This document shows positions 1,795-64,000 of a stretch of 64,000 bases of DNA, piece by piece. Source of the DNA: Clostridia bacterium (GTDB taxonomy: Bacteria > Bacillota > Clostridia > RGIG6154); contig JAZUPZ010000007.1 of assembly GCA_045605445.1 (NCBI GenBank), forward strand, positions 2,924 through 66,923. The letters are read 5' to 3'. The notes beneath the pieces are model-generated. The model had not been told where the DNA came from, did no database searches, and was given only the letters and a program-made list of their open reading frames with translations. The position numbers were made by a program, and so were the translations under genes. How positions within the stretch are numbered: position 1 is the first letter of the stretch; each line of letters opens with the position of its first letter.

Positions 1795-1920
1795 TTTTTA
1801 CATTATATACCTAAAGTTTAAAAATGTCAATAACAAAAGTTGAAATAATTTAAAAATGTTTTAAATCTATTTACACAATTGAAAATTTGTGGTAAAATAT
1901 ATTCCGTATAACTGTATATA

Positions 1921-2545
1921 AATACAATGGCGCAGTATTCTAGTCAGAGTTGCTCATTTCCAGGACGGGCCTAAAAATCCGTTGAAGGGCATATCGATGA
2001 AGTTCCTGGTGCCGGCTTTCGATGCCCAATCGAGGGTTGGTGCTGGGAGTTAAGAATTAAGGGCGTACTGCAATGGCATGCAGAATACGTACCCTTTTTT
2101 CGTGGAGACCTGTGATTGTGGCGTATTTTCAGGATTGCTGTAAAGCAGACTAAAAAAAGCTACGACGCAGGGTTAAACCTGCTTGGCGGTAATTAAAAAG
2201 CTGTGGGCAGAGTAGCCTGCCTTGAGTGGCTATGGCGAATCAGGGATCAGACCCCGGGCGGTTAGGCCGATCGCCCCCGGTTATTGCTCTGTGAAACCAT
2301 ATCTGCAAAAGAGGCTAAGAATGAGTGAGTCTGCCAAGGAAATCTTCTAGACTGTTCTGACCAGGCGTATAAGGGATTGCAGTGCGGACTAAGTGGCAAT
2401 CAGGTAGCAAAGACCAGTAATGCTTTGAGGAGCGTTGTAAGCGGAAACCCCCGGGATTGGCGACGAGCCGGGAACGCTTCGGGAAAACCGACCGGACCTA
2501 AGCCGTAAAATTTACCTTGTACGCTGCCATTGTTTTATATATATG
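1921..2545 (+). ncRNA. ole: Putative OLE (ornate large extremophilic) RNA
   Basis: A ~620 nt GC-rich region with no ORF and many local stem-loops, immediately upstream of a small 4-TM protein and dxs-tlyA-nadK-argR-recN. This is the hallmark OLE/oapA gene neighbourhood known from Bacillus halodurans and Clostridia. A candidate promoter TTTACA-16-TAAAAT lies at about 1873-1905. Confidence 0.55.
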
Positions 2546-2563
2546 AATTAAAGGAGAAATTAC

Positions 2564-3130
2564 TTGGAACAAAAGAAAAGAAAAGTAAAATTCAAAACGA
2601 GTAAGAAAAAAATAAGCCTTAAGTATGTGTTTGGAATAACCTTTCTTACCTTTATAATAGCCCTTATTCTCCAGACGGTGTCAAAAATTCTTATGGAAAG
2701 CATTGCAATTTTCTATGCTTTCATTCTTCTTATCGTTGTAATAATGATAGGTATAGTGTTTGACATAATCGGTATGGCGGTTACCTCTGCCGACGATGCG
2801 GCGTTTTTCTCAATGGCGGCTGACAGGATAAGAGGCGCGAAGGAGGCCATTTCCCTTATAAAAAATGCGGAAAAGGTTTCAAATGTTGCAAACGACGTAA
2901 TTGGCGACGTTTGCGGAATCATAAGCGGAAGCATCGGCGCGGCGATAATTGCCTCCATTTCAGCGGGCAAAAGCGTAACCGAGGCGCTCTGGCTCTCCCT
3001 TCTTATAACGGGAAGCGTTTCAGCGCTTACCGTAGGGGGAAAGGCGGCAGGAAAATTTATAGCTATTTCATATAACAGCTATATAGTTTATGCGGCAGGA
3101 AAAATAATTGCTCTTTTTAAAAGAGGATAA
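2564..3130 (+). CDS. oapA: OLE-associated protein A-like small multi-pass membrane protein
   Basis: 188 aa, about 20 kDa, with four predicted TM helices. TTG start with RBS AAGGAGA. Sits between the putative OLE RNA and dxs, as oapA does. Confidence 0.5.
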   Translation: MEQKKRKVKFKTSKKKISLKYVFGITFLTFIIALILQTVSKILMESIAIFYAFILLIVVIMIGIVFDIIGMAVTSADDAAFFSMAADRIRGAKEAISLIKNAEKVSNVANDVIGDVCGIISGSIGAAIIASISAGKSVTEALWLSLLITGSVSALTVGGKAAGKFIAISYNSYIVYAAGKIIALFKRG

Positions 3131-15539: not shown

Positions 15540-15565
15540 TTTTTGGGATGTAAAAAATGCCCAAA

Positions 15566-15600
15566 TCGCAAAAAGAACCGTGATTTTCACGGTTCTTTTT
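15566..15600 (+). terminator. Rho-independent terminator
   Basis: Hairpin AAGAACCGTGA...TCACGGTTCTT followed by a T-run. Confidence 0.7.
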
Positions 15601-15602
15601 TA

Positions 15603-15715
15603 CTACGAACAAACTTCACCGCTCGACGTACCTTCGTACGCCTTCGGGTATCCCAAAACAAGAAAAATCTTGTTTTGGTTCAGTTTGTCCGTTTTGGTCT
15701 ATTTTTTCCTATCCC
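15603..15715 (+). repeat. Modular intergenic repeat, A-type copy
   Basis: Shares ACAAACTTCACC...CGTACGCCTTCGGG...GGTTCAGTTTGT...ATTTTTTCCTATCCC with the copies at 20077, 61892 and 62105. Its internal hairpin ACAAG/CTTGT is compensated relative to the 20077 copy. Confidence 0.6.
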
Positions 15716-15860
15716 AAAAAACATTGTTCATTCTACATTATTTTTTGCCGTTTTAAAATGACGGGGACCCGTGTGTATTCGGGGTTATTATGTTTCTCAT
15801 GCGGCAGAATGGTTTTTTCGACGGGCTGAAGGCTTTCACCGGAGAATCCGTCTGCCCTGA

Positions 15861-18866: not shown

Positions 18867-19940
18867 ATGATATATTTATTACTTGTGGCAGGGGTTTTTA
18901 TGGGATGGTCCCTGGGCACAATGGACGCTGCCAGCGCTTTCGGCACGGCAGTTGCAACCCGAGTCGTAAGATACAGAACGGCAACGGTTATCATTTCCAT
19001 TTTTGTAATTATAGGTGCTTTTACAGCAGGACATAATAACATAGGCAAGCTTGCGGAGCTTGCAACAAGCAACGAGATAATTGCATCTGTTGAAGATGTG
19101 CAGATAGCTGCAGAAAACAATGAGGTTGATTTGCTTCGTCTGAAGTCAGCCCTTAAGGCGGCAATAATTTTTGCCTGCGCAGGATTTACCGTTTTTGTGA
19201 TGGGGCTTTTCAAGCTTCCCGTTTCCGCAAACCAGGCGATAACCGGCGCAATAATAGGCTGGGGACTTTGCTATGCCGATTATTCCAACCCTGCAATTGT
19301 AGCGGTAAATCTGCCGCAGATAGGGAAATTTGCTTCAACCTGGATTCTTAATCCCCTGGGGGCAGGAATAATTTCATTTATAATAGTAAGCCTGTTTAAC
19401 CGCTTTATAGGAAAACGACTTTCTACTCTGGCTTTTTACGATTCTATTATTAAATTCGGATATATTGCCGCGGGAATTTATGCTTCCTTCAGTATCGGAA
19501 TAAACAGCTCGGCAAACGTTACCGCTCTTTATTTTGATATGGTATACGACAAAACGGGCATTGTTTCAAACCTTATAATAAATCCGAGAATTGCGGCAAC
19601 AATCGGCGGTATTGCCATTGCCATCGGAGTTCTTACATATTCTAAAAAGGTTATGATGACGGTAGGCTCGGGAATTGCCGATATAAGTCAGATGGACGGT
19701 TTCCTTGTGGTTATTGCAATGGCAACAGCGGTGCTCCTTATGGGTAAGGTTATGGGAATTCCCGTATCAAACTCTCAGGCAATAGTAGGCGCCGTAATCG
19801 GAGCAGGACTTACAAGAGGCATAAAACACGTTAACTTCGGCGTATTCAAACGAATTGCCGTAGCCTGGGTAAGCTCGCCAACCGCAGCGGGACTTCTGAC
19901 CTATCTGATAGGGCTTTTAACAAAATTTTACTTTGCTTAA
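18867..19940 (+). CDS. pit: PiT-family inorganic phosphate transporter
   Basis: 357 aa multi-TM protein with a PiT-like motif region (GTMDAASAFGTAVATRVV). Confidence 0.65.
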   Translation: MIYLLLVAGVFMGWSLGTMDAASAFGTAVATRVVRYRTATVIISIFVIIGAFTAGHNNIGKLAELATSNEIIASVEDVQIAAENNEVDLLRLKSALKAAIIFACAGFTVFVMGLFKLPVSANQAITGAIIGWGLCYADYSNPAIVAVNLPQIGKFASTWILNPLGAGIISFIIVSLFNRFIGKRLSTLAFYDSIIKFGYIAAGIYASFSIGINSSANVTALYFDMVYDKTGIVSNLIINPRIAATIGGIAIAIGVLTYSKKVMMTVGSGIADISQMDGFLVVIAMATAVLLMGKVMGIPVSNSQAIVGAVIGAGLTRGIKHVNFGVFKRIAVAWVSSPTAAGLLTYLIGLLTKFYFA

Positions 19941-20003
19941 GGGGGATGTTAAAAAAGTCCGGAACGTCAAAAGGCTGTGTTTTCCCTATGAAAGACACAG
20001 TAA
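19941..20003 (+). repeat. C-type 60 bp repeat immediately after a stop codon. The second copy is inverted at 41756-41816.
   Basis: GGGGATGTTAAAAAAGTCCGGAACGTCAAAAGGCTGTGTTTTCCCTATGAAAGACAC matches the reverse complement at 41756-41816 at about 90% identity. Confidence 0.6.
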
Positions 20004-20029
20004 ATATAAAAAAATTTAACCAAATGTAG

Positions 20030-20068
20030 AAAAACCTCAATTTCTTGAGGTTTTTCCTTGTTTTTATG
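20030..20068 (+). terminator. Rho-independent terminator
   Basis: AACCTCAA...TTGAGGTT followed by a T-run. Confidence 0.65.
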
Positions 20069-20076
20069 CCTTTTGA

Positions 20077-20357
20077 CTACGAACAAACTTCACCTAACTC
20101 CGCGTAGCGTCGCAACCTTCGCTGTTAATTGAGCTTTTGCAAAGCACAAAGTTTACGCTCGGTTGCTCCTTTTCCCCATAAAGTCAATTGACTTTTTGGG
20201 GAAAAGGAAAAACAATGCAAAGAAGCGAAGTTTTGCATTTGTGCAAAACGTAGCAAGTCTGCTTTGTTTTGACGCGCGTTCGGGTTCCCACAAGCATAGC
20301 TTGTGGTTCAGTTTGTTCGTTCCAAACATTTTTTCCTATCCCCTTACGGGGTGAAGC
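20077..20357 (+). repeat. A-type modular repeat copy carrying a ~150 bp internal insertion rich in nested palindromes
   Basis: Same 5' module as 15603 (CTACGAACAAACTTCACCTAACTCCGCGTA) and same 3' module (GGTTCAGTTTGT...TTTTTTCCTATCCCCTTACGGGGTGAAG). The insert includes CCTTTTCCCC-ATAAAGTCAATTGACTTTTT-GGGGAAAAGG. Confidence 0.55.
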
Positions 20358-20476
20358 TGTTTAAAATTAAGTTTTTAAACAGCTTCTTTGTGTTTCTGTG
20401 CAAAAAATGGTACTTTGGTAAAATAGGGGATTGAAATTTATATCCCATGGTGTTAAACTTATACTACAACAGAAAA

Positions 20477-29924: not shown

Positions 29925-30655
29925 TGACAGTATTTGAAAAACCGAAGGCTCTTACAGATGCAGTTCTTCACTATTGCCCCGGTTGTACCCACGGTATTAT
30001 TCACAGGCTTGTTGCTGAAGCAATTGACGAGCTTGGAATTGCCGGCAGAACAATTGGTGTTGCATCGGTAGGATGCTCAGTATTTACATACAATTATTTT
30101 GATGTTGATATGGTTCAGGCGGCTCACGGTAGAGCTCCGGCTGTAGCAACAGGCGTTAAACGTTCCGATCCGAACAATATCGTTTTCACCTATCAGGGCG
30201 ACGGCGACCTTGCGGCTATCGGAACAGCTGAAACAGTTCACAGCGCTGCAAGAGGCGAAAATATTACAGTTATTTTCGTAAACAACGCAATTTACGGTAT
30301 GACAGGCGGTCAGATGGCTCCGACAACTCTCCCCGGTCAGGTAACTCAGACCTCTCCCTACGGAAGAGATGTTGAAAAGGTTGGTTATCCTATAAAGGTT
30401 TGCGAAATGCTTTCTCAGGTTGACGGCGCAACATACTTAGAAAGAGTTGCAGTTAACAACGTTAAAAATGTAAAAGCTGCAAAAGCGGCAATTAAAAAAG
30501 CATTCCAGAACCAGATTGAAGGAAAAGGCTTCTCTTTGGTTGAAGTTCTTTCAACCTGTCCTACAAACTGGGGTATGGCTCCCGACAAGGCTATTAACTG
30601 GCTGGAGGAAAATATGTTACCGTATTATCCTTTGGGTGTCTATAAAGATAAATAA
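29924..30655 (+). CDS. vorB: 2-oxoacid:ferredoxin oxidoreductase beta subunit (TPP-binding)
   Basis: 243 aa with the TPP motif GDGDLAAIG. Confidence 0.8.
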   Translation: MTVFEKPKALTDAVLHYCPGCTHGIIHRLVAEAIDELGIAGRTIGVASVGCSVFTYNYFDVDMVQAAHGRAPAVATGVKRSDPNNIVFTYQGDGDLAAIGTAETVHSAARGENITVIFVNNAIYGMTGGQMAPTTLPGQVTQTSPYGRDVEKVGYPIKVCEMLSQVDGATYLERVAVNNVKNVKAAKAAIKKAFQNQIEGKGFSLVEVLSTCPTNWGMAPDKAINWLEENMLPYYPLGVYKDK

Positions 30656-30661
30656 TGTCGG

Positions 30662-30752
30662 CTAAATTTGTCCATATTGCACCTTTGCCTGCCCCCTCGA
30701 GTACACAAAGTACACTTTGGGCAGACAAATGCACAATCTGAATCAAATTTAT
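30662..30752 (+). repeat. B-type modular repeat copy inserted between vorB and vorC
   Basis: AAATTTGTCCATATTGCAC-CTTTGCCTGCCCC-CTCGAGTACACAAAGTACAC-TTTGGGCAGACAAATG-CACAATCTGAATCAAATTT. Confidence 0.6.
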
Positions 30753-30917
30753 TTCGACTTAAACAGTCAGTTTTCTTTGAAAGCTGAAGCGAATAGATAA
30801 TAGTTCGGGCAGAATTTCTTTGAGATAAAAGCAAATCCGAAGGTTTTGCACGTCAACTATTAACTATTCGTTATTCACTATTAACTATTCGTTAATTTTC
30901 GGAAAGGAATAATAACA

Positions 30918-34583: not shown

Positions 34584-36167
34584 ATGAAAAAAACAATAAT
34601 ATTTATTCTTGTGCTTTGTATGCTTTTTTCCGTTCAACCGGTAACTGCAACAGAGGAGACGGGTGAAGTAAAGGATATAACCGTTGTTGTTGGCGGAGAG
34701 AAGATTAAGTGCGACGTTGCCCCATTTATGGTGAACGACAGAACAATGCTTCCCGTAAGAGCTGTTTTTGAGGCAATCGGAGCTGAGGTTTCATGGGATG
34801 AGTCAGCTCAGAAGGTTACTGCAAAAAAAGAAAACACAACGGTTGAAATTGTAATAGGAAGCAATATAATTAAAATAAACGGCGAAGAAAAAATAATCGA
34901 TGTTCCCGCAATGGAAAAGAACGGCAGAACCTTTGTTCCCGTAAGAGCCTGCGCCGAAGCCTTTGGTTTTAAGGTTAACTGGTACGAGGGTGCAAATATG
35001 ATAAAGCTTGTAGAGGAAGCCTGGGTAATAAGCAGAGAGGAAAACTATTACGGCTTTACGGAATATAAATATAATCCCAACGGAACCCGGTCATGTATTT
35101 ATTCCGAAAAGAAAACAGGCGAGTGGGAAAAAGAAGAATACAATCTTGCAGGAAAGCTTATATTGGTAGACAACTCCGACGGAGAATGGATAAAATATTA
35201 TTATGACCACGAAGGTAACTGTATTTTTGTACTCAGCTATGAAGGAAGCTGGATGAATTATGCTTATGATGCCAACGGAAATATGACCTATGAAAATGAA
35301 GACGGAATGGGTTGGATGAGAAAAACTTATGACGAGCAGGGAAGATTGAAAACTATGGAGCTCCCGGGACAAAAAACGGAATATGTTTACACCGATGATG
35401 GATATACAACATATTTTGAAAATAAATGGGGAGAGGAATGGGTAAATAAATACGACAAAAACGACAATTTGCTCTCAGCCGATCTTGTATCAGATGTAGC
35501 CGATTATCGTACCAAGGATAAATACGGTAACATTCTTATCGTAAGTCACAGCGCAGGAAAGTATGAAATAAAAAAATACAGCAGAGACGGAGCTCCGCTT
35601 GGAACCTACAGCACAGAAGGACCTTACATAGTCAGAAAGTATAATGAAAACGGCAAAATAATAAAAGAGGAAACCGCCTTTGGTCTGGTTGAGGTTTACG
35701 AATACGACGAAAAGGGTAACCTACTTTCTGTGACCTCTTCCGATAACAACGGTGAAAAATATATCTATGACGAGGCAGGAAATAAAATACATTTTGAAAA
35801 AGAAAACGGATATTTCGAAAAATATGAATATGACAAAATGGGGAATATTATTTATTTCGATACCTCCGATAAGCCATGGGAAAAGTATGAATACGACGAG
35901 GCGGGCAATAAAACATATTTTGAAAATGAAAACGGATATTTTGAGAAATATGAATATGATGAAAAGGGCAACCTTCTGAGTTATTCAGATTATTATAAAA
36001 AGACAAAAAACTATACCTATGACGAACGTGGAAATCTGATATATTATGAAGATTCCGACGGATACTGGACAAAGTATGAGTATGACGAAAACAACAATTT
36101 GATATACAAAAAAACTCAGCGTTTTGACGAAGAATTCAAATATGAATATATAAAAATAGAAAGATAA
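34584..36167 (+). CDS. Secreted YD-repeat protein with two N-terminal copper-amine-oxidase-N-like (cell-surface) domains
   Basis: Signal peptide, two CuAO-N-type domains (DRTMLPVRAVFEAIGAEV, GRTFVPVRACAEAFG), then at least 9 YDxxGN repeats. Confidence 0.55.
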   Translation: MKKTIIFILVLCMLFSVQPVTATEETGEVKDITVVVGGEKIKCDVAPFMVNDRTMLPVRAVFEAIGAEVSWDESAQKVTAKKENTTVEIVIGSNIIKINGEEKIIDVPAMEKNGRTFVPVRACAEAFGFKVNWYEGANMIKLVEEAWVISREENYYGFTEYKYNPNGTRSCIYSEKKTGEWEKEEYNLAGKLILVDNSDGEWIKYYYDHEGNCIFVLSYEGSWMNYAYDANGNMTYENEDGMGWMRKTYDEQGRLKTMELPGQKTEYVYTDDGYTTYFENKWGEEWVNKYDKNDNLLSADLVSDVADYRTKDKYGNILIVSHSAGKYEIKKYSRDGAPLGTYSTEGPYIVRKYNENGKIIKEETAFGLVEVYEYDEKGNLLSVTSSDNNGEKYIYDEAGNKIHFEKENGYFEKYEYDKMGNIIYFDTSDKPWEKYEYDEAGNKTYFENENGYFEKYEYDEKGNLLSYSDYYKKTKNYTYDERGNLIYYEDSDGYWTKYEYDENNNLIYKKTQRFDEEFKYEYIKIER

Positions 36168-40753: not shown

Positions 40754-41577
40754 TGAGAAAAGTAGTTGTAATAACAGGCGCAGGCGGAATTTTGTGTTCC
40801 TCCTTTGCAAAGGAAATGGCAAAGCAGGGGCATAAGGTTGCAGTTTTAGACCTTAACCTTGAGGCGGCGCAGGCTGTTGCCGAAGAAATTGTAAAAGAAG
40901 GTGGAATCGCAAAGGCTTATAAAACCAATGTTCTTGATAAGGAAAATCTTATTGCGGTTCACGATGAAATTGTAAAAGACCTGGGCAAATGCGAAATTTT
41001 AATAAACGGGGCAGGGGGAAACAGCCCAAAATGCACCACCTTTAACGAAACCTATCAGCCCGGCGACGAAGAAAGAGAGGATATTTCCACCTTCTTTAAT
41101 CTTGACAAAGCAGGCTTCAACTTTGTTTTCGACCTTAACATAATGGGAACAATTCTTCCAACTCAGGTTTTTGTTAAGGATATGCTGGGCGTTAAAGGAT
41201 GTTCCGTTTTAAATATTTCTTCAATGAACGCCTACAAACCGCTCACAAAAATTCCTGCCTACTCTTCTGCAAAGGCAGGGGTTCAGAATTTAACCCAGTG
41301 GCTCGCAGTTCATTTTGCAGAGCAGGGGATAAGAGTAAACGCAATGGCTCCCGGCTTTTTTGTAACCAATCAGAATAAAGCCCTTCTGTTTAATGAAGAC
41401 AAAACACCAACAGCAAGAACCGGCAAAATCTTAAACGCAACACCAATGAAAAGATTCGGCGAACCAGAAGAGCTCTTAGGCACACTTCTGTTTTTAACCG
41501 ATTCTGAAAAATCAGGCTTTATAACGGGAGTAACGATACCGGTAGACGGCGGCTTCTCCGCCTACTCAGGAGTCTAA
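40753..41577 (+). CDS. SDR-family oxidoreductase (D-mannonate/fructuronate reductase-like)
   Basis: TGAGGILC Rossmann motif. Operonic with uxuA. Confidence 0.65.
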   Translation: MRKVVVITGAGGILCSSFAKEMAKQGHKVAVLDLNLEAAQAVAEEIVKEGGIAKAYKTNVLDKENLIAVHDEIVKDLGKCEILINGAGGNSPKCTTFNETYQPGDEEREDISTFFNLDKAGFNFVFDLNIMGTILPTQVFVKDMLGVKGCSVLNISSMNAYKPLTKIPAYSSAKAGVQNLTQWLAVHFAEQGIRVNAMAPGFFVTNQNKALLFNEDKTPTARTGKILNATPMKRFGEPEELLGTLLFLTDSEKSGFITGVTIPVDGGFSAYSGV

Positions 41578-41585
41578 TGGAATGC

Positions 41586-41672
41586 TAAAATTGCCCATAT
41601 TGCACCTTTGCCCTCACTGAAGTACACAAAGTACTGCCCGTTCGGGCAAATGCACAATCTGAACAATTTTTC
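41586..41672 (+). repeat. B-type modular repeat copy
   Basis: TAAAATTGCCCATATTGCAC-CTTTGCCC...GTACACAAAGTAC...GGGCAAATG-CACAATCTGAACAATTTTTCC. The inner stem TTTGCCC/GGGCAAA is compensated relative to other copies. Confidence 0.6.
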
Positions 41673-41725
41673 CGATTCCATTGAAATGAATAGTTAAAAG
41701 TCAATAGTTAATAAAAAATGAAGGA

Positions 41726-41760: not shown

Positions 41761-41816
41761 TATCGTGTCTTTCATAGGAGAAAAACAGTCTTTTGACGTT
41801 CCGGACTTTTTTAACA
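41756..41816 (-). repeat. C-type repeat, inverted copy, immediately 3' of the AraC gene stop
   Basis: Its reverse complement matches 19941-20003. Confidence 0.6.
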
Positions 41817-41823
41817 TCCCCTC

Positions 41824-42763: not shown

Positions 42764-44164
42764 ATGGTAAAATATGTTGAAAACAGAGCGGAAAATGTTA
42801 AAATTGCTTACATCGGCGGCGGCTCAAGAGGCTGGGCATGGGGACTTATGTCAGACCTTGCAGAGGAAAAGGAGTTAAGCGGCGAGGTTTGCCTTTATGA
42901 TATAGACAAAAAGGCTGCAAAGGATAACGAAATAATCGGAAACAAAATAAAAGACTATAAAAAAGGTGCCGACAACTTTGTATATAAAGCTGTTGATACC
43001 TATAAAGAAGCTCTTACCGGCGCCGACTTTGTTATAATTTCAATTCTTCCCGGAACCTTCGACGAAATGGCGTCAGACGTTCACACTCCCGAAAAATACG
43101 GAATTTATCAGTCGGTTGGTGACACGGTTGGCCTTGGCGGAATTGTAAGAGCATTAAGAACTCTTCCAATGTTTGAAGAATTTGCTCTTGAAATTAAAAA
43201 ATATTGCCCCAATGCCTGGGTTATTAACTATACAAACCCAATGACAATGTGCATCAAAGCTCTTTACAAGGCTTTCCCCGAAATAAAGGCTTTCGGATGC
43301 TGTCACGAGGTTTTCGGAACTCAGAAGTTCTTAGGTCAGGTAATGGCAAGATATCTTGGCTTTGAAAAAGACATAGAAAGAACAGAAATAAAAACAAACG
43401 TTGTTGGTATTAACCACTTCACCTGGATTACAGAAGCTAAATATAAAAATATCGATATTTTCCCGGTTTATAAAGAATTCTGCGAAGCACATAAAGATAC
43501 AGGCTTCGTTCCCGAAAAAAAGGACGACCACTGGATGAACGGCGGCTTCAATACAAACGAAAAGGTTAAAATGGACCTGTTTTTAAGATATGGTGTAATT
43601 GCCGCTGCCGGCGACAGACATCTTGCAGAGTTCTGCCCGAACAAATGGTACTTAGGTTCTCCCGAAAACGTTGCAGAGTGGGGCTTTGGCTTAACTACTG
43701 TTGACTGGAGAAAGAACGACCTTAAGGAAAGACTTGAAAAGAGCGCAAAGCTCGTGTCGGGCGAAAAAGAATTTGAATTCAAGCCAACCGGCGAAGAGGG
43801 AGTAAGACAAATTAAAGCCCTTCTGGGACTTGACGATTTTGTTACAAATGTAAATGTGCCCAATATAGGTCAGATTCCTAATCTGCCCTTCGGTTCGGTA
43901 GTTGAATCAAACGCAAGATTCTGTGCAGATACGGTAATTCCCGTAATGGCAGGCAACGTGCCCACAGCGGTTCACGGCCTTCTTTCAACAATAGTTGACA
44001 ATCAGGATATGGTAGTAGATGCGGCAGCTGCAAGAGATTTGGAGCTTGCCTTCAAAGCCTTCTGTAAAGATCCGCAGAATACACTTTCTCTTGAAGAATC
44101 AAGAAAGTTGTTCAACGAGATGCTTGAAAATACCAAGAAGTATCTTAAAGATTACCAAATATAA
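42764..44164 (+). CDS. Glycoside hydrolase family 4 (NAD/Mn-dependent; alpha-galacturonidase/alpha-glucuronidase-like)
   Basis: N-terminal KIAYIGGGS Rossmann motif. 466 aa. Confidence 0.7.
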   Translation: MVKYVENRAENVKIAYIGGGSRGWAWGLMSDLAEEKELSGEVCLYDIDKKAAKDNEIIGNKIKDYKKGADNFVYKAVDTYKEALTGADFVIISILPGTFDEMASDVHTPEKYGIYQSVGDTVGLGGIVRALRTLPMFEEFALEIKKYCPNAWVINYTNPMTMCIKALYKAFPEIKAFGCCHEVFGTQKFLGQVMARYLGFEKDIERTEIKTNVVGINHFTWITEAKYKNIDIFPVYKEFCEAHKDTGFVPEKKDDHWMNGGFNTNEKVKMDLFLRYGVIAAAGDRHLAEFCPNKWYLGSPENVAEWGFGLTTVDWRKNDLKERLEKSAKLVSGEKEFEFKPTGEEGVRQIKALLGLDDFVTNVNVPNIGQIPNLPFGSVVESNARFCADTVIPVMAGNVPTAVHGLLSTIVDNQDMVVDAAAARDLELAFKAFCKDPQNTLSLEESRKLFNEMLENTKKYLKDYQI

Positions 44165-44169
44165 GAACG

Positions 44170-44410
44170 GTTAAATTTGTTCATATTGCACCTTTGCCTG
44201 CCCCCTCGAGTACACAAAGTACACTTCGGGCAGACAAATTCACAATCTGAAGCAAATTTTCCACGTTCTTGACAGGTTAAATATTTGTTCATATTGCACC
44301 TTTGCCTGCCCACTCGAGTACACAAAGTACACTTCAGGCAGTCAAATTCACAATCTGAAGCAAATTTCCCACGTTCTTGACAGGTTAAATTTGTTCATAT
44401 TGCACCTTGT
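44170..44410 (+). repeat. Tandem array (2.3 units of ~108 bp) of the B-type modular repeat
   Basis: Unit: GGTTAAATTTGTTCATATTGCAC-CTTTGCCTGCCC-CTCGAGTACACAAAGTACAC-TTCGGGCAGACAAATT-CACAATCTGAAGCAAATTTTCCACGTTCTTGACA. Confidence 0.65.
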
Positions 44411-52256: not shown

Positions 52257-52508
52257 ATGAATATGAGGAAAAAGAAAAATATATTTACAGTCTGCATAGT
52301 TGCAATTCTTTTAATTGCATTTTCTGTTTATCTTGTACCCGATGCCATAAAGCCTTTTTTTATGGCGGTATCCATAATTTCAGTTACAATTTTTATGATA
52401 GTGTTTTTTGCAATGTGGCGATGCCCGCACTGCGGCAGAAGTCTTGGCAGGCTCGATAACGCAACTCATTGTAAATATTGTGGCAAAAAACTCTACGAAA
52501 ATGAATAA
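52257..52508 (+). CDS. Small membrane protein with a C-terminal zinc ribbon
   Basis: 83 aa with two TM helices and CPHCG...CKYCG. Confidence 0.4.
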   Translation: MNMRKKKNIFTVCIVAILLIAFSVYLVPDAIKPFFMAVSIISVTIFMIVFFAMWRCPHCGRSLGRLDNATHCKYCGKKLYENE

Positions 52509-52586
52509 AATCAAACAAAGTCAGGCGATTTGCCTGACTTTTTACATCAACTATTCACTAAAAAAGAGCCTTTCGGCTCTTTTTAT
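52507..52586. repeat. D-type repeat carrying two terminator hairpins (copy 1)
   Basis: AAAATCAAACAAAGTCAGGCGATTTGCCTGACTTTTTACATCAACTATTCACT...AAAAAGAGCCTTTCGGCTCTTTTT. The second copy is at 53897-53997. Confidence 0.65.
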
Positions 52587-52789
52587 TTGTTCATTTTCGG
52601 ATTGTCGGTTCTTCCGAGAAGGTAATCAATCGAAACATCGAAGTAATCTGCAAACATAATAAGAGTGGCATAATCAGCTTCCCTTGCTCCGCTTTCGTAT
52701 CTGCTTATGCTGTTCTGATTCATATTCAAATCCATTGCAAGCTTTAACTGTGAAATTCCTTTTTCTTTTCGAAGAGCCTTAAGCCTCAT
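52583..52789 (-). CDS. XRE-family (Cro/C1-type) HTH regulator
   Basis: 68 aa with SQLKLAMDLNMNQNSISRYESG. Confidence 0.7.
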   Translation of the reverse strand: MRLKALRKEKGISQLKLAMDLNMNQNSISRYESGAREADYATLIMFADYFDVSIDYLLGRTDNPKMNK

Positions 52790-52790
52790 T

Positions 52791-52819
52791 GAATCACCTC
52801 TTGACTTTATTATCCCACT
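52791..52819 (+). promoter_or_regulatory. Promoter TTGACT-17-TATAAT
   Basis: Read directly from the sequence, in the divergent region between the XRE gene and the secreted-protein gene. Confidence 0.45.
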
Positions 52820-52875
52820 TTGGTATAATAAAAATATCCCAAAACGGGATATTTATTCAACAAAGGAGAATGAAC

Positions 52876-53883
52876 ATGAAAAAACTTATTACAATGGTAT
52901 TGGTTTTAAGTATGCTTATCAGCTGCTTTGCCGCTCTTCCTGCCCAGGCAAGAGTAGGAGATGTTGTAGGAACAGCATGGCACACAGATATTGTTACATA
53001 CATAAACCACTATGCGGTTCCGACTTATGTTGTTAACGACAGAGTTGTTGTTATTGCGGAAGATTTAAGAAACTTCGGCTTTAGTGTTATCTGGGACGGA
53101 ACCCAGAGAACTCTTACGATCTACAGAGACACCTATATCAACGTCGTAAAAATGATGAACGTAACCAAGGCCGGACAGCCTTCTACAAAATACAGAGATG
53201 TTCTTGAAACAGATATCAGAGTTTATGCAGGCGGAAGACAAATTACTTCTTATAACATCAACGGAATGACAATGATTCCTCTTGAAGAGCTCACAATGTT
53301 TGGCAGCTTTGTATGGCTGGATGAACAGAGAGTTCTCAAAATGTGGGTAGAAGACGGACTTTCAATGAACTCAACAATGCAGTATGTTGCGCCTTACGGT
53401 CAGGCTCCCGCACCAACACCAACTCCGACACCTTCTTATCCTTCTTACAATTCCTATTCTTCATCGTTTAATAATTTGAAAAATACAATACGCACAAAAG
53501 GAAGATATGTTACCGAAGGAGCTTATGCTTTAAGTCGTTCTTACAGCAACGGCTCTGAAATATCTTTAATGTATCTTCCTTCATCAGGTACAGCAGGAAA
53601 CTTTATAACTCTTTCGTTTTACCCTTATAAGGGCGATCGTGACAGCAGAGTAACCTTTTTTATAGAGGAAGATAAAACAATCCTCCTTCCGTGGGTTCTT
53701 ATTAAAATAGACGATGTAACTGCCTTTCAGGCAGAATTTAATAACGGAATAATGGAAGTTGAAAAAGGTCAATATACCTCCTCTACGTCCGGTTTGCTTA
53801 AATCTTGTATTTCACTTTTTGAAGAAGAATTATCCGACTGGGGATGTAATATAAAATTGAGCGACTTTGGTATTACTTATTGA
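52876..53883 (+). CDS. Secreted protein with a CuAO-N-like cell-surface domain, PT linker and unknown C-terminal domain
   Basis: Signal peptide MKKLITMVLVLSMLISCFAALPAQA, a PAPTPTPTPS linker, and RBS AAGGAGA. Confidence 0.5.
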   Translation: MKKLITMVLVLSMLISCFAALPAQARVGDVVGTAWHTDIVTYINHYAVPTYVVNDRVVVIAEDLRNFGFSVIWDGTQRTLTIYRDTYINVVKMMNVTKAGQPSTKYRDVLETDIRVYAGGRQITSYNINGMTMIPLEELTMFGSFVWLDEQRVLKMWVEDGLSMNSTMQYVAPYGQAPAPTPTPTPSYPSYNSYSSSFNNLKNTIRTKGRYVTEGAYALSRSYSNGSEISLMYLPSSGTAGNFITLSFYPYKGDRDSRVTFFIEEDKTILLPWVLIKIDDVTAFQAEFNNGIMEVEKGQYTSSTSGLLKSCISLFEEELSDWGCNIKLSDFGITY

Positions 53884-53896
53884 TATAACTGAAAAA

Positions 53897-53997
53897 TAAA
53901 ATCAAACAAAGTCAGGCGATTTGCCTGACTTTTTACATCAACTATTCACTATTCATTATTCACTATTAACTAAAAAAGAGCCTTTCGGCTCTTTTTT
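53897..53997. repeat. D-type repeat copy 2, with expanded ACTATTCA heptad repeats
   Basis: Same two hairpins as copy 1. Confidence 0.65.
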
Positions 53998-56578: not shown

Positions 56579-56627
56579 AAATGTCTCCTTTGGTATTGTT
56601 AATATATATTTAAGAAATAAGTTTACG

Positions 56628-56675
56628 TGTTGATTTCAATTCGTGCCGTAAGGCAATTCATTGATTTCATCTTCG
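56628..56675. repeat. 42 bp direct repeat (copy 1) containing the perfect palindrome GATTTCATC-TTC-GATGAAATC
   Basis: CGTAAGGCAATTCATTGATTTCATCTTCGATGAAATCATTAT versus CGTAAGGAATTTATATCGCTGATTTCATCTTCGATGAAATCATTAT at 57286-57335. Confidence 0.6.
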
Positions 56676-56684
56676 ATGAAATCA

Positions 56685-57032
56685 TTATTTTGGTTTTTTC
56701 TTTGCGGTTGTAATTGACGCTATAAGCTTCCTTCGAATTGTTCCGCATTTGTTATTCAAATTACTATATGTTATTTTGTCTATTGCATTCACTTTGAACA
56801 AAATTTCCAACCAATATTCTGTTTCAAAGCACTCTTTGAGAGCAATTTCAAGCTTGTGTATAAAATCTGCTCTGCTCTGGGCATATTTTGCTTCGTGTGA
56901 ATTTGCACCAATTGATGAGCAAGAACGCAAAAGTTGATTTGTAAATACTGCTCTGCCCTTTAATTCATCACAGATCATAGTTGTTTCAACAATCAACTCT
57001 ACCGCTAATTCCTTGATAGTTTTATTGTTCAT
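56685..57032 (-). CDS. Four-helix-bundle protein (23S rRNA intervening-sequence protein family, Avd-like fold)
   Basis: The 115 aa core MNNKTIKELAVELIV...SCSSIGANSHEAKYAQSRADFIHKLEIALKECFETEYWLEIL fits PF05635-type proteins. RBS AGAGG upstream. The ORF-track N-terminal extension is probably not translated. Confidence 0.6.
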   Translation of the reverse strand: MNNKTIKELAVELIVETTMICDELKGRAVFTNQLLRSCSSIGANSHEAKYAQSRADFIHKLEIALKECFETEYWLEILFKVNAIDKITYSNLNNKCGTIRRKLIASITTAKKKPK

Positions 57033-57048
57033 AATATAAGCCTCTTTC

Positions 57049-57300
57049 TGCGATATACTCACTTTGCTCGTGCGATATATTTTCGCTTTGTTCAAATGCG
57101 ATATAACTTCGCTTTGCTTAGTTGCGATATGATATAAGAACCTCACGAAATATGACAAAATCAAAGATTTCTATATTTCGGAGAACCTTAATACTCGCAG
57201 GCTCGTATTAAATTCCTTTGTCATTTTTGCAATCTCATTACGAAGTAATATATCGCATCGAAGATATATCGCGTACAAAGTGCATATCGCAAATGACGTA
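57049..57300. promoter_or_regulatory. Iteron-like array: 4x TGCGATAT (57049-57135) and 3x ATATCGC (57245-57290), in inverted orientation around a central region
   Basis: Read directly from the sequence. Lies upstream of the four-helix-bundle gene. Confidence 0.4.
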
Positions 57301-57335
57301 AGGAATTTATATCGCTGATTTCATCTTCGATGAAA
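57286..57335. repeat. 42 bp direct repeat, copy 2
   Basis: See copy 1. Confidence 0.6.
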
Positions 57336-57392
57336 TCATTATACAATATATTTTCCCTTTTTTCAACATACATTTAACTGAGGTGATAATGT

Positions 57393-57473
57393 TGAAAAAA
57401 CTTGGTTATGCTTTTGTGGCAGCTTTGTTGCTGCTTGCGATTTTAACTATATCAAGGAATCTTTTTTAGTCCA
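57393..57473 (+). CDS. Possible 26 aa hydrophobic peptide (MLKKLGYAFVAALLLLAILTISRNLF)
   Basis: RBS-like GAGGTGA 7 nt upstream of the ATG. Single TM helix. Unverified. Confidence 0.2.
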
Positions 57474-60972: not shown

Positions 60973-61881
60973 ATGAAAAAAATTCTTGCTTTGTGCCTTG
61001 TGCTTATTCTTTCTGTCAGCCTTTTCGGCTGTGAAAACGAAAAGGATGCCGAAACCTATGAAGCAACTCTTTATTTCGTGAACGCTGCAAAAACAGACCT
61101 GGTTCCCGAAACAAGAAAAATTAAATATACCGTTGAAGAAAAGCTTGAACAAAAGGTTGTTGAAGAGCTCCTTAAAGGACCTCTGGACAAAACAAATCTG
61201 CCGGTAATTCCAAAGGATACCGAGCTTCTTTCCGTTAAGATTAAAGACAATTATGTTGAGGTTAATTTCACGGCGGGAATTTACAGCGGCATAGAAACAG
61301 ATAATATTTTAATAAGAACCTCTCTTCTTAAAACTCTTACCTCCATTCCCGGAGTAGAGGGAGTAAAAATTCTTGTAAACTCCGGAGCATATATCGACAA
61401 TAACGGAATGGAGGTTGGCACAATTTTTGCCAACGATATTGTTTACGATACCGAGCTTGAAGACGAACAGCACAGGTATGTAAGGCTCTATTTTGCCGAT
61501 AAGGATGCAGGAAAGCTGGTAGCCGAGGCAAGAAAGGTTGAGCTTTCGCCAAAAGAGTCAATAGAAATGAGAATTCTCAAGGAGCTTATAAAAGGCCCCG
61601 AAAAGAATTTCCTTTCAAAAACAATCCCCGAGGAAACAAGAATCCTCTCGGTAGAAACCAAAGAGGGCGTTTGCTTTGTAAATCTCTCCCAGGAATTCAT
61701 AACAAAGCATATCGGCGGTTCAAGCAGCGAAATGATAACCGTTTACTCAATCGTAAACTCTCTTACCCAGCTTGAAAACGTTGATAAGGTTCAGTTCTTA
61801 ATCGAAGGACAGAAAACGGAAGTATACATTCAAATGATTTTCAACGAGCCGTTTACACAGAACGATTCAATAATAGGCTAA
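60973..61881 (+). CDS. GerMN-domain lipoprotein (tandem GerMN)
   Basis: Lipobox LFGC and two GerMN-like repeats. Confidence 0.6.
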   Translation: MKKILALCLVLILSVSLFGCENEKDAETYEATLYFVNAAKTDLVPETRKIKYTVEEKLEQKVVEELLKGPLDKTNLPVIPKDTELLSVKIKDNYVEVNFTAGIYSGIETDNILIRTSLLKTLTSIPGVEGVKILVNSGAYIDNNGMEVGTIFANDIVYDTELEDEQHRYVRLYFADKDAGKLVAEARKVELSPKESIEMRILKELIKGPEKNFLSKTIPEETRILSVETKEGVCFVNLSQEFITKHIGGSSSEMITVYSIVNSLTQLENVDKVQFLIEGQKTEVYIQMIFNEPFTQNDSIIG

Positions 61882-61891
61882 AATCAGGAGT

Positions 61892-62350
61892 GTTAAAATT
61901 GCCCGGATATGCACAAACTTCACCTAACTCCGCGTACCTTTGTACGCGTTCGGGTTCAGTTTGTACATCCCGGACAATTTTTCCTACTCCTTTACGGGCG
62001 TTAAAATTGCCCATATTGCACGACTAAGCTCCCTTGTGTACACAAAGTACACGACGGTCGCTTATTCGCACAATCTGAACAATTTTTCTTACTCCTTTGC
62101 GGGTGTTAAAATTGCCTGGATATGCACAAACTTCACCTAACTCCGCGTACCTTTGTACGCGTTCGGGTTCAGTTTGTACATCCCGGACAATTTTTCCTAC
62201 TCCTTTACGGGCGTTAAAATTGCCTGTATTACACGGCTAAGTCCCTTGTGTACACAAAGTACACGACGGTCGCTTATTCGCACAATCTGAACAATTTTTC
62301 TTACTCCTTTACGGAGTGTTAAAGTTATCTGAATACGTACAAACTTGGTA
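61892..62350 (+). repeat. Tandem array of about 4.3 modular repeat units alternating A-type and B-type cores
   Basis: All units share GTTAAAATTGCC(C/T)(G/A)(G/T)ATATGCAC at the 5' end and CAATTTTTC(C/T)TACTCCTTT(A/G)CGGG at the 3' end. Cores alternate between AAACTTCACCTAACTCCGCGTACCTTTGTACGCGTTCGGGTTCAGTTTGTACATCCCGGA and GACTAAGCTCCCTTGTGTACACAAAGTACACGACGGTCGCTTATTCGCACAATCTGAA. Confidence 0.7.
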
Positions 62351-62482
62351 TATACAGAACGATGCAATAGTTGAACAAAATGAGGCTTCGGGAACTCCCG
62401 AGGCCTGATTTTATAAAAAAGAGTTCTGAAAGTGTATTGATGTATAGCGGTTTAAGTGATAAAATTAAAGAAGGTGATTAAA

Positions 62483-64000
62483 ATGAGTAAATTAACAGTT
62501 AAAAACATTTCCTCTCTTGAAAAGGTGTTGCCGGCGGCAGAATGTGATTTTACAGAGGTAAACAGCGGCAGTGCCCTTTTAAATGAAGAGTTTTCCTATC
62601 AGGTGGCATATAAAGGGGAAAATGAGGAAATAATCCGTCAGATTAACACCGTTGAGGTTGAATCGGATATATCAGAATATATTAAGTTATATGTGGCAAA
62701 GGGGGTTCCCGTAACCTTCAGGGATACGCCAAAAACAGACAAGGCTTTTGAAAATGTGTCTTCTGCGGTTATTCCCGATGTGCTTGAGCCTTATAACAAG
62801 TGCCTTTCCGTTTCTCTTATATCTTTCAGAACCCTCTGGGTAAGTGTAAAGGCTGACAAAAAGGTAAAACCCGGTAAGCACAGAATAAAAATAATTTTCA
62901 AATCCAACGGCGAAGAAACGGGAATAAGCGAATTTGAGCTTTCTGTTATCGGCGCAGAGCTTCCTGAACTTGATATTCCCAATACAAACTGGATTCATGC
63001 CGATTGTATTGCAGATATACATAACTGCAAAATTTTTTCAGCCCGTCATTGGAAGCTTATTGATAAGTATATAAAAATGGCATCAGACCACGGTGTTAAT
63101 ATGATGTATACCCCGGTAGTCACTCCTGCTCTTGACACGCAGATTGGTATAGAGAGACCGACCGTTCAGCTTGTGGATATAGCGCTTGATAAAGGCAAAT
63201 ATACATTTGGGTTTGAAAAGCTTGAAAAATGGCTTAAGCTTTGCAGAAAAAACAAGATTAAATATATAGAGGTTGCTCATTTGTTTTCCCAGTGGGGCGG
63301 AAAGAAAACTCCAAAGGTTGTTGTAAAGGAAAATGGCAGAGAATATGCAAAATTCGGCTGGCATACAGATGCCCTTACAAAGGAATATAAAGAATTTCTT
63401 AAGCAGTTTGTTCCCGCTCTTGCAGGCTTTTTTGAAGAAAAATGGGACAGGGAAAAGGTTTATTTCCATCTTACCGACGAGCCTGAAACAGAGCACCTCG
63501 ACCATTACGGAGAGCTTTATAAGCTTGTAAAGCCTCTGCTTGGCAATTTTAAGCAAATGGACGCTCTTTCCGACTATGTTTTCTATGAAAAGGGAATTAT
63601 GGATACTCCCGTGGTTATTACCCCAAAGATTATGAATTATGTAAACAACGGCGTTGAAAATATGTGGGCATACACCTGCAGCTGGCCTTATGACGAAAAA
63701 TACGGTAACCGTTTTATCGAAATGCCCTCCTGCAGAAGCAGAATAACAGGGCTTCAGCTTTATAAGTATAACATAAAGGGTTTTCTTCACTGGGGATTTA
63801 ATTTCTATTACAGCCGTCTTTCGGTTCAGCTTATAAATCCTTATATAAATAACGATGCAGAGGGCGGATTCCCGGCAGGGGACGGCTTCAGCGTATATCC
63901 CGTTTTTGAGGGAGTAATTCCTTCAATAAGATTAAAGGTGTTTAACCAGGGAATGCAGGATTTTATGGCGGCAAAGCTTCTTGAAAGACTTGCAGGAAGG
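62483..64000 (+). CDS. DUF4091/GH123-like putative glycoside hydrolase, partial. Continues past the window end.
   Basis: Open frame from the ATG at about 62483 to the window end (>500 aa). RBS AAGGTGA. The listed - strand ORFs at 62687..63022 and 63083..63790 are shadows. Confidence 0.45.
   Translation, partial: MSKLTVKNISSLEKVLPAAECDFTEVNSGSALLNEEFSYQVAYKGENEEIIRQINTVEVESDISEYIKLYVAKGVPVTFRDTPKTDKAFENVSSAVIPDVLEPYNKCLSVSLISFRTLWVSVKADKKVKPGKHRIKIIFKSNGEETGISEFELSVIGAELPELDIPNTNWIHADCIADIHNCKIFSARHWKLIDKYIKMASDHGVNMMYTPVVTPALDTQIGIERPTVQLVDIALDKGKYTFGFEKLEKWLKLCRKNKIKYIEVAHLFSQWGGKKTPKVVVKENGREYAKFGWHTDALTKEYKEFLKQFVPALAGFFEEKWDREKVYFHLTDEPETEHLDHYGELYKLVKPLLGNFKQMDALSDYVFYEKGIMDTPVVITPKIMNYVNNGVENMWAYTCSWPYDEKYGNRFIEMPSCRSRITGLQLYKYNIKGFLHWGFNFYYSRLSVQLINPYINNDAEGGFPAGDGFSVYPVFEGVIPSIRLKVFNQGMQDFMAAKLLERLAGR

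Follow-up and report, generated by a model that had tools for sequence, protein, structure and literature searches.

A gene-oriented family of hairpin-forming intergenic repeats in uncultured gut and rumen Clostridia

REP elements lie mostly downstream of open reading frames (ORFs), where they sometimes supply the stop codon, and the survey that describes them makes no mention of Firmicutes or Clostridia (PMC3733652). Here we characterize a family of intergenic repeats in a 64,000-nucleotide stretch of DNA from a Clostridia bacterium (the window), and compare it with the described systems that it most resembles. Like REP/BIME and REPIN-RAYT elements, its members are high-copy extragenic palindromes found mostly 3' of ORFs, each a hairpin of ~100 nt built from two inverted arms; they occur in head-to-tail clusters with short linkers, have no terminal-inverted-repeat transposase of their own, and exist as lineage-specific variants. 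The differences are equally clear. The conserved GTAG/CGTC tag is absent (the minus strand reads GGAGTAGG in the first A unit, GTAA in the first B unit, ATAG at 15700 and ATCG at 41584), the arms are not themselves small palindromes, and the apical modules are interchangeable. BIMEs alternate, whereas all copies of the new family follow the orientation of the upstream gene. Its host is an uncultured Clostridia lineage rather than Enterobacteria, Pseudomonas or Stenotrophomonas, and no RAYT was identified.

Pneumococcal BOX elements are likewise modular and lie between genes; their conserved ends can pair, the copy number within an element varies, and they are co-transcribed with their neighbours. 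The new family shares this modular make-up, the conserved pairable ends, the variation in copy number and the co-transcription, but an earlier description of the repeats as BOX-like is an analogy only. BOX iterates only the internal boxB, between boxA and boxC, whereas here whole units or A-B dimers are iterated, and the likeness is one of modular form, not of sequence as far as seen. ERIC/IRU and Neisseria Correia (CREE) elements are imperfect palindromes of 100-150 nt in transcribed intergenic regions, whose fold and effect depend on orientation, with G.U pairs on one strand only. The new family has the same imperfect-palindrome form in transcribed intergenic regions and the same dependence on one-strand G.U pairs, but ERIC and Correia elements occur in both orientations, Correia with TA target duplications, whereas the new family is seen in one orientation only and no fixed duplication was found. 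With MITEs it shares a short, non-coding form, polymorphic insertion, nested and tandem arrangement, and terminal inverted repeats (the arms beginning TAAAATTG and ending CAATTTT, with longer arm-to-arm complementarity). It departs from MITEs in that neither a target-site duplication of fixed length nor a parent IS was found, and its variable ends are in part of host origin at one locus or more.

The kind of element is known, namely a structured intergenic repeat of the REP, BOX or MITE sort; the family is new, and no new biology is demonstrated. Its host lineage is that of uncultured gut and rumen Clostridia (Monoglobaceae- or Ornithomonoglobus-like MAGs), and its unusual traits in comparison with known repeats are a strict sense orientation and the inclusion of the gene end in its stems. 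We favour, with moderate confidence, the explanation that these repeats form a previously uncatalogued family of non-autonomous, REPIN/BOX-like mobile hairpins that are constrained as a single strand of antisense polarity.

The array at 61887-62346, downstream of the GerM-domain gene, had been described as 4.3 tandem units. The tandem array is real, but it does not consist of 4.3 like units. TRF reports a period of 108 (70% matches) together with one of 213 (2.2 copies, 93%), and direct reading resolves the array as A-B-A-B-A', two alternating unit types followed by a 34-nt fragment of an A unit (Table 1). The stretch 62103-62241 is 96% identical to the A1-B1 stretch 61890-62028. From its 5' side, the first A unit consists of the outer arm GGAGT, GTTAAAATTG, the stem CCGGATATGCACAAACT/AGTTTGTACATCCCGG and the apex hairpin GCGTAC-CTTT-GTACGC, and 3' of the apex follow CAATTTTTCC, the outer arm ACTCC and the linker TTTACGGGC. 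Its predicted fold reaches -43.9 kcal/mol on the plus strand (z = -6.5) and -58.6 kcal/mol on the minus strand (z = -10.0); the corresponding values for the first B unit are -33.3 and -43.2 kcal/mol. A CRISPR array had been considered and rejected at first reading, and we reject it as well, since the whole 213-nt period recurs at 93% identity and leaves no unique spacers. An imperfect 38-nt direct repeat flanks the array, its left copy running from the final codons of the GerM-domain gene through the stop (61879-61881) to 7 nt past it; 29 of 38 positions are identical in the local alignment, and none of 300 shuffles scored as high.

Table 1. Coordinates of the repeat units, modules and flanking features in the window.
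Feature	Coordinates	Strand	Evidence or context
A-type unit 1	61887..61999	+	nhmmer, TRF, direct reading
B-type unit 1	62000..62099	+	blocks TTGCAC / GTGTACACAAAGTACAC / GCACAA
A-type unit 2	62100..62212	+	TRF, nhmmer
B-type unit 2	62213..62312	+	nhmmer
Truncated A' unit, 5' module only (GGAGTGTTAAAGTTATCTGAATACGTACAAACTT)	62313..62346	+	nhmmer, direct reading
Left copy of 38-nt imperfect direct repeat flanking the array	61851..61888	+	local alignment
Right copy of 38-nt repeat, extending into terminator stem	62348..62385	+	local alignment
Intrinsic-terminator-like hairpin and T-run 3' of the array, closing the transcription unit	62383..62406	+	terminator scan
B-B-B' array downstream of GH4 glycosidase gene	44163..44408	+	TRF, nhmmer
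Single B unit downstream of SDR gene	41576..41682	+	nhmmer
Solo 5' module (GGATGTTAAAAAAGTCCGGAACGTCAAAAG)	41790..41822	-	directly 3' of stop of AraC-type gene (minus-strand gene)
Single B unit between beta and gamma subunit genes of 2-oxoacid:ferredoxin oxidoreductase operon	30657..30760	+	nhmmer
Composite A-type copy, ~180 nt	15540..15720	+	nhmmer, inverted repeat pair
Composite A-type copy, ~405 nt	19941..20346	+	nhmmer, inverted repeat pairs

Fold prediction makes each unit, of ~105 nt, one long imperfect hairpin in which conserved blocks (TAAAATT, CAT.TTGCAC, the GTAC..GTAC apical hairpin, GCACAATCTG and AATTTT) are separated by stems that vary in sequence yet remain complementary. Read from the outside inwards, a variable outer stem is followed by a small asymmetric internal loop, a stem of an A-run and a T-run (TAAAATTG / CAATTTT), variable stem II, the facing blocks TTGCAC and GCACAA, variable stem III and the apical hairpin, which is GTGTAC-ACAAA-GTACAC in B units and GCGTAC-CTTT-GTACGC in A units. 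The strings ACAAACTTCACC and TTCGGGT are conserved in A units in addition, and a further hairpin may be present; four of six A-type copies keep a CTTCGG that might form a cUUCGg tetraloop. In the alignment, unit ends read (G/C)TAAAATT ... AATTTT(T)CC, and blocks and internal mismatches alike are conserved across genera. The claim that copies share terminal modules and exchange their cores holds beyond the window, where the B-type apex GGTGTACACAAAGTACACC is found on the A-type scaffolds of L102 and L087; modules are interchangeable between unit types. The 5' edge, placed at first at GTTAAAA, lies 5-10 nt further left, within a variable outer arm that often holds the stop codon. The outermost stem differs from locus to locus, with at least 5 contiguous pairs at 19 of 22 loci and a mean of 6.4, vs 4.1 when flanks are paired across loci.

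Searches with single units bear out the family and the array, as nhmmer recovers on the plus strand every member listed in the first-pass annotation. A-type matches fall at 15604, 20076..20350, 61887 and 62101, and B-type matches at 30660, 41583, 44169 and 44277 (plus a partial one at 44383), 62000 and 62213. The first figure of at least 11 copies becomes 10 complete and 3 partial units (the latter at 44383, at 62313 and, as a solo 5' module, at 41790-41819), distributed over the array and five further loci. That solo module lies on the minus strand after a minus-strand gene, so the statement that all members follow plus-strand genes on the plus strand applies to the listed ones; the broader rule is that each copy in the window is oriented like the gene ending just 5' of it. 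Cores of the GTACACAAAGTAC type were counted 6 times against 0.00 expected, ACAAACTTCACC 4 times against 0.4, and the 30-nt 5' module of the minus-strand element at 41790, identical to 19944-19973 on the plus strand, has 2 exact copies against 0.00 expected.

A unit length of about 108 bp, as first proposed, fits units generally but not the two A-type copies at 15540-15720 and 19941-20346, both of which are composites. In the former, the outer stem (TTTTTGGGAT/ATCCCAAAAA) is of 10 bp and encloses two additional hairpins, a terminator-like one at 15574-15601 and another at 15653-15678. In the latter, the 5' module is followed by ~100 nt that include a terminator-like hairpin (20029-20056) and then by the core, nested palindromes totalling ~165 nt (20107-20272) take the place of the apex, and a further hairpin (20288-20306) precedes the 3' module; a 28-nt direct repeat (19921-19947 / 20403-20430, p = 0.002) flanks the locus. 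The array after the GH4 gene has a 5' outer arm, AAGAACG, that overlaps with the stop of this gene; the complementary CGTTCTT ends each unit, and the final 26 nt are a 5' module only. The outer stem of the unit after the SDR gene (AATGGAAT/ATTCCATT) takes in two bases of the stop codon.

Further copies, which the first reading had suggested looking for, were found by nhmmer in about a dozen other Clostridia MAGs from gut and rumen and in metagenome contigs. Homologous B units are present in MAGs labelled Clostridia bacterium (several), Eubacteriales, Monoglobaceae and Candidatus Ornithomonoglobus and in JGI metagenome contigs, and A-type scaffolds in L087, L102 and L120. A 15-mer scan of the genome collection gave 119 hits, mostly by chance since a 15-mer is too short, from which nhmmer sorted out the true homologues; a more specific metagenome scan returned 13 stretches, 5 of them real copies. 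As to catalogued families, no Rfam family matches the repeats at the gathering threshold over the whole window, in which only an OLE RNA (1911-2546) passes, and at E <= 10 over 61700-62500 only chance-level matches to unrelated families appeared. The A-B dimer had no blastn match among plasmids and phages, a pattern scan of viral contigs gave 0 matches, the motif strings occurred in no paper of the full-text collection searched, and searches of this collection on MITEs in Clostridia and on REPIN/RAYT in Firmicutes brought up no description of the family.

The elements sit at gene ends, between cistrons or between a stop codon and a terminator. At 18 of 22 independent B loci a long sense ORF ends directly at the element, its stop lying -11 to +4 nt from model position 1 and, in about a third of cases, inside the element; one starts directly after tRNA-Ile in a 16S-23S spacer, and three have no long sense ORF ending there. 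The next downstream feature is 9 to 367 nt away from B-type loci. Many MAG loci have a ribosome-binding site and start codon 10-30 nt downstream, from which we take many copies to be intercistronic, and L129 has, read by eye, two copies inside a putative ATP-synthase operon, after c- and b-subunit-like ORFs. Neighbours scanned with Pfam or annotated, in the window and in related contigs, are housekeeping or glycan-utilisation genes. No element antisense to the adjoining gene end was seen among the copies examined, and minus-strand members were seen only after minus-strand genes (41790 in the window; L144).

We considered and rejected a simple intrinsic terminator, because the hairpin formed by the 5' and 3' modules of a unit is not among the plus-strand calls of the terminator scan and because many copies lie between cistrons of one operon. 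What the scan does call are short inner hairpins, at 15653-15678 and 20288-20306 in the composite A-type copies and at 41649-41634 on the minus strand, in the inner stem of a B unit. A separate terminator-like hairpin lies 3' of the element at four of the six window loci (19944, with the hairpin at 20353-20386, 41584 and 61887 by scan; 44170 by eye).

The reported compensating changes in the inner stems are real. In a MAFFT alignment of 21 B units with a 32-pair structure, changes on both sides occur at 19 of the 32 pairs, and the number of cells with a both-sided change (123) exceeds that obtained by shuffling (53 +/- 5; 0 of 500 shuffles reach 123) and with slid partners (20-52), demonstrating that the stems are kept complementary. 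The two strands do not fold equally well. The minus strand folds better in 24 of 25 copies, with a mean gain of 12.3 kcal/mol under RNA parameters and 5.5 under DNA parameters; the RNAalifold consensus is -21.2 kcal/mol on the minus strand vs -6.0 on the plus strand, and 89.5% vs 82.7% of cells are paired. Of the mismatches of arm against arm, 111 are of the type that is G.U on the minus strand and 43 of the type that is G.U on the plus strand. At columns 35/107 and 36/106 of stem II, the minus strand shows the states UG/CG/UA and UG/GC/AU/UA, respectively, so that on this strand compensatory change proceeds by way of wobble pairs. On its sense strand the element is C-rich (C 463 vs G 272) in surroundings whose sense strand is G-rich, so that the asymmetry is not accounted for by a mutation bias of the genome. 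Stem II and the conserved block hold most of the asymmetry and the outer stem none, and the independent events behind it are limited, many wobble positions being common by descent. Given that pairing is better on the strand complementary to mRNA, the selected fold is probably not that of a sense 3'UTR RNA; the proposal of a 3'UTR structure or small structured RNA is weakened accordingly, and also by the terminator-like hairpins between modules in the two composite A-type copies, with which a sense transcript would often miss one arm.

That presence of the elements is polymorphic, as the first-pass annotation had suggested examining, is evident from empty sites in congeners at three loci, downstream of korB, gerM and GH4, which indicate that elements have been gained or lost. 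The korB-korC spacer is 13-14 nt in relatives (KorB 95% identical) vs 262 nt in the window; L126, where the only element is a different one, has a spacer of 172 nt, and a 97%-identical relative has at this locus a B-like unit with the same outer arm and a different apex. In two congeners a terminator follows gerM 0-9 nt after the stop, where the window has the 460-nt array in between. In L144, the closest relative for GH4 (92% amino-acid identity), a 63-nt spacer takes the place of the B-B-B' array. This empty site reads TAAGAATG and contains AAGAATG, implying that the 5' outer arm AAGAACG of the GH4 array is host flank, and the 3' arm CGTTCTT of each unit complements this host-flank arm. We found no fixed-length target-site duplication, and direct repeats in the flanks of the single-copy loci that we tested did not reach significance; a 3-4 nt duplication (AAA/TAAA) is possible at the kor locus, whereas the GH4 locus shows no evident one. 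At two loci, gene ends recur as long, imperfect direct repeats (38 nt at the 61887 array, 28 nt at 19941), which are not general elsewhere. Insertion cuts with a wide stagger might have produced them, as might a tandem duplication that took in the end of the gene.

A host cis-acting RNA, whose sense hairpin in the 3'UTR or intercistronic spacer is selected as an exonuclease barrier or RNase processing site that adjusts how strongly the genes of an operon are expressed relative to one another, or as a leaky attenuator, and has been recruited at many operons, is a real but minor possibility. It would account for the invariable sense orientation at gene ends and inside core operons (ATP-synthase-like, kor, rRNA spacer), for the ribosome-binding sites and start codons close behind many MAG copies, for the U-rich run that ends the 3' arm, for the CTTCGG kept in A-type copies, and for blocks conserved across genera. 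The same sense strand, however, pairs systematically worse, with conserved C.A and A.C mismatches, and in two copies terminator-like hairpins part the pairing arms; close relatives have no element at the same operon positions, and tandem arrays and truncated units are unexpected for a regulatory RNA. The better folding of the other strand raises the converse proposal of an antisense RNA, in which the very stable minus-strand hairpin (-43 to -62 kcal/mol) and the short U-run after it would stop convergent or antisense transcription before it reaches the upstream gene, or insulate the gene from it. Promoter-like matches do occur on the minus strand at unit junctions, but they are weak, scoring only 9 of 12, the longer U-run is on the sense side, and many copies sit between co-directional cistrons of one operon, where there is no space for an antisense promoter, all of which makes this very improbable.

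It is also conceivable that no fold is selected, the repeats being quasi-palindromes, selfish or neutral, in which template switching within the molecule during replication (quasipalindrome correction) keeps the arms complementary and lengthens them into the flank, with covariation as a by-product. The locus-specific outer stems, the host-derived arm of the GH4 array with its complement in each unit, and the imperfect gene-end duplications around the 61887 and 19941 loci all agree with this. Template switching would nevertheless yield perfect pairs on both strands instead of a one-strand wobble bias, and the internal mismatches and blocks conserved across genera are not its expected product; we rate it quite improbable. 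Recombination sites that act as single strands, like the attC sites of integrons or others of mobile gene cassettes, have much the same form, being defined by structure more than by sequence: imperfect palindromes of ~100 nt directly 3' of ORFs in gene orientation, with the bottom strand folding better. Yet the ends, read in the alignment, have no RYYYAAC / GTTRRRY core sites (R and L boxes), the flanking genes are not cassettes but syntenic housekeeping genes, which relatives possess without the element, some arrays consist of consecutive sites that enclose no genes, and there is no integrase among the neighbours scanned or annotated, so that an attC-like identity is scarcely credible.

We return to the explanation that we favour, that of mobile hairpin repeats. 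According to this model, the elements would be non-autonomous mobile DNA, and constraint would act on the mRNA-complementary strand in its folded, single-stranded form. By analogy with REPIN/RAYT or IS200/IS605-type systems, this form would most likely be a DNA intermediate that is recognised by an enzyme encoded elsewhere and acting in trans. Copies would survive only in those sites and in that orientation that give the host transcript the weaker, C.A-mismatched hairpin, as the reverse orientation would put a hairpin of -45 to -60 kcal/mol and a U-run into operons. Being co-transcribed, they probably also form 3'-end or intercistronic mRNA hairpins, which would be a by-product and not the reason for their conservation, and arrays may have formed by neighbouring insertion and tandem duplication. 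Neither a transposase, a RAYT nor another candidate enzyme was found in the ~64 kb of this genome and scattered 8-kb loci, where a tblastn search with Y1 transposase sequences gave no hits but is uninformative, and there is no autonomous IS with the same ends in the 64-kb window or the related loci compared.

Several observations weigh against this model. An IS608-type mechanism is expected to act on the lagging-strand template, which GC skew and gene orientation identify as the plus strand, yet it is the minus strand that folds better; in these genomes skew follows the gene strand, so that local GC skew cannot separate replication from transcription as the cause of orientation. Orientation follows the gene even for minus-strand cases, which fits a constraint at the transcript level better than one linked to replication. 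The CTTCGG of A-type copies is a feature of the sense-RNA type, and template switching can regenerate complementary arms in palindromic DNA without selection for a fold. A more specific proposal, speculative and in our estimation rather unlikely, is an undescribed mobile hairpin that seeks gene ends: it would move as an antisense single strand, insert in fixed orientation at the 3' boundary of a transcribed gene (a stop codon or the 3' end of a tRNA), extend its palindrome over the flank so that the stop joins the stem, and sometimes duplicate 25-40 nt of the gene end. If true, insertion would be coupled to transcription or to gene-end structure, or would involve an RNA or cDNA intermediate, unlike cut-and-paste or RAYT-type transposition.

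Structured intergenic repeats are well studied in Proteobacteria and pneumococci and barely described in gut Clostridia known only from MAGs. The combination of sense orientation, antisense-biased pairing and a stop codon within the stem makes the family a clean natural system for the study of hairpin mobilisation and of host tolerance in essential operons. If it is plain REP-like DNA, it still provides a new family of markers, and a caution that covarying stems in palindromic DNA are not in themselves proof of a functional sense RNA. The family also matters for MAG quality, operon annotation and strain typing, as it fills the spacers of core operons and breaks assemblies; the latter is seen at the 61887 array, where the only Logan contig with the upstream gene stops 34 nt past the stop codon, approximately where the array begins.

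The convergent SDR-AraC spacer carries different members of the hairpin-repeat family, whose units of about 105 nt sit at gene ends, in three related genomes: that of the window, a congener (L143) and the closest relative (L144), in which the apex differs again (see table). At the korB-korC spacer, which holds a B unit in the window, KorB (the beta subunit of a 2-oxoacid:ferredoxin oxidoreductase) ends in ...YKDK (30650-30655) and is 1-8 residues shorter than its counterparts with C-termini that were read in relatives L121, L124, L125 and L126 (...YKDKQ, ...YKDKTAE, ...YKDKTADEK and ...YKDKFAGKEE). The end of korB appears to have been remodelled at its junction with the element.

A second intergenic element, distinct from the hairpin-repeat family, consists of small hairpins flanked by arms made of AATAGTT/ACTATTC heptamer runs. 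It adjoins B units at two loci, and in L126 the korB-korC spacer contains this heptamer-arm element alone.

In the composite A-type copy near 20 kb, the apex is replaced by approximately 165 nt of nested palindromes, including a pair of 26-nt arms with no spacer between them; these palindromes may represent a further hairpin element inserted into the first. The right copy of the PHO4 gene-end repeat, a 28-nt direct repeat flanking this composite copy, is followed by GGGGAT-TGAAATTTAT-ATCCC, in which the element's outer arms stand just 10 nt apart; this sequence could be either a collapsed copy of the element or the hairpin that was originally targeted.

The exact GerM protein is encoded by only one public contig, L001 (Logan contig SRR31940145_576964), which terminates 34 nt past the gerM stop codon, just within the first repeat unit. 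This contig end suggests that repeats of the hairpin family break short-read assemblies.

Positions of the elements, repeats and RNA discussed (window coordinates unless a relative is named)
Feature	Position	Strand	Description
SDR-AraC spacer, window			full B unit
SDR-AraC spacer, L143	18394-18420		solo 5' module and terminator
SDR-AraC spacer, L144	980-1215	-	2 units
Heptamer-arm element	30790-30905; 41684-41710; 53941-53972		
Heptamer-arm element, L126	2250-2400		
Apex-replacing palindromes	20107-20272		
26-nt arm pair	20162-20213		
PHO4 repeat (right copy) and outer arms	20403-20445		
Direct repeat	52504-52560; 53895-53951		57 bp, perfect; terminator-like hairpin inside
Tandem repeats	35697-36074		63 and 126 nt
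Tandem repeat	57049-57130		26 nt, 3.3 copies
OLE RNA	1911-2546	+	full-length; 467 bits vs gathering score 50

Other repeats are also present in the window. The 57-bp pair flanks a 364-aa ORF (52789-53883) with no Pfam match at E <= 0.001. The 63- and 126-nt repeats lie inside an ORF (34584-36167) and are therefore protein repeats. The 26-nt repeat occupies a spacer (56579-57465); in L142, a syntenic contig from a congener, the FemAB-PBP5 spacer measures 146 nt and is thus shorter by about 740 nt. Downstream of the OLE (ornate large extremophilic) RNA lies a 188-aa ORF (2564-3130).
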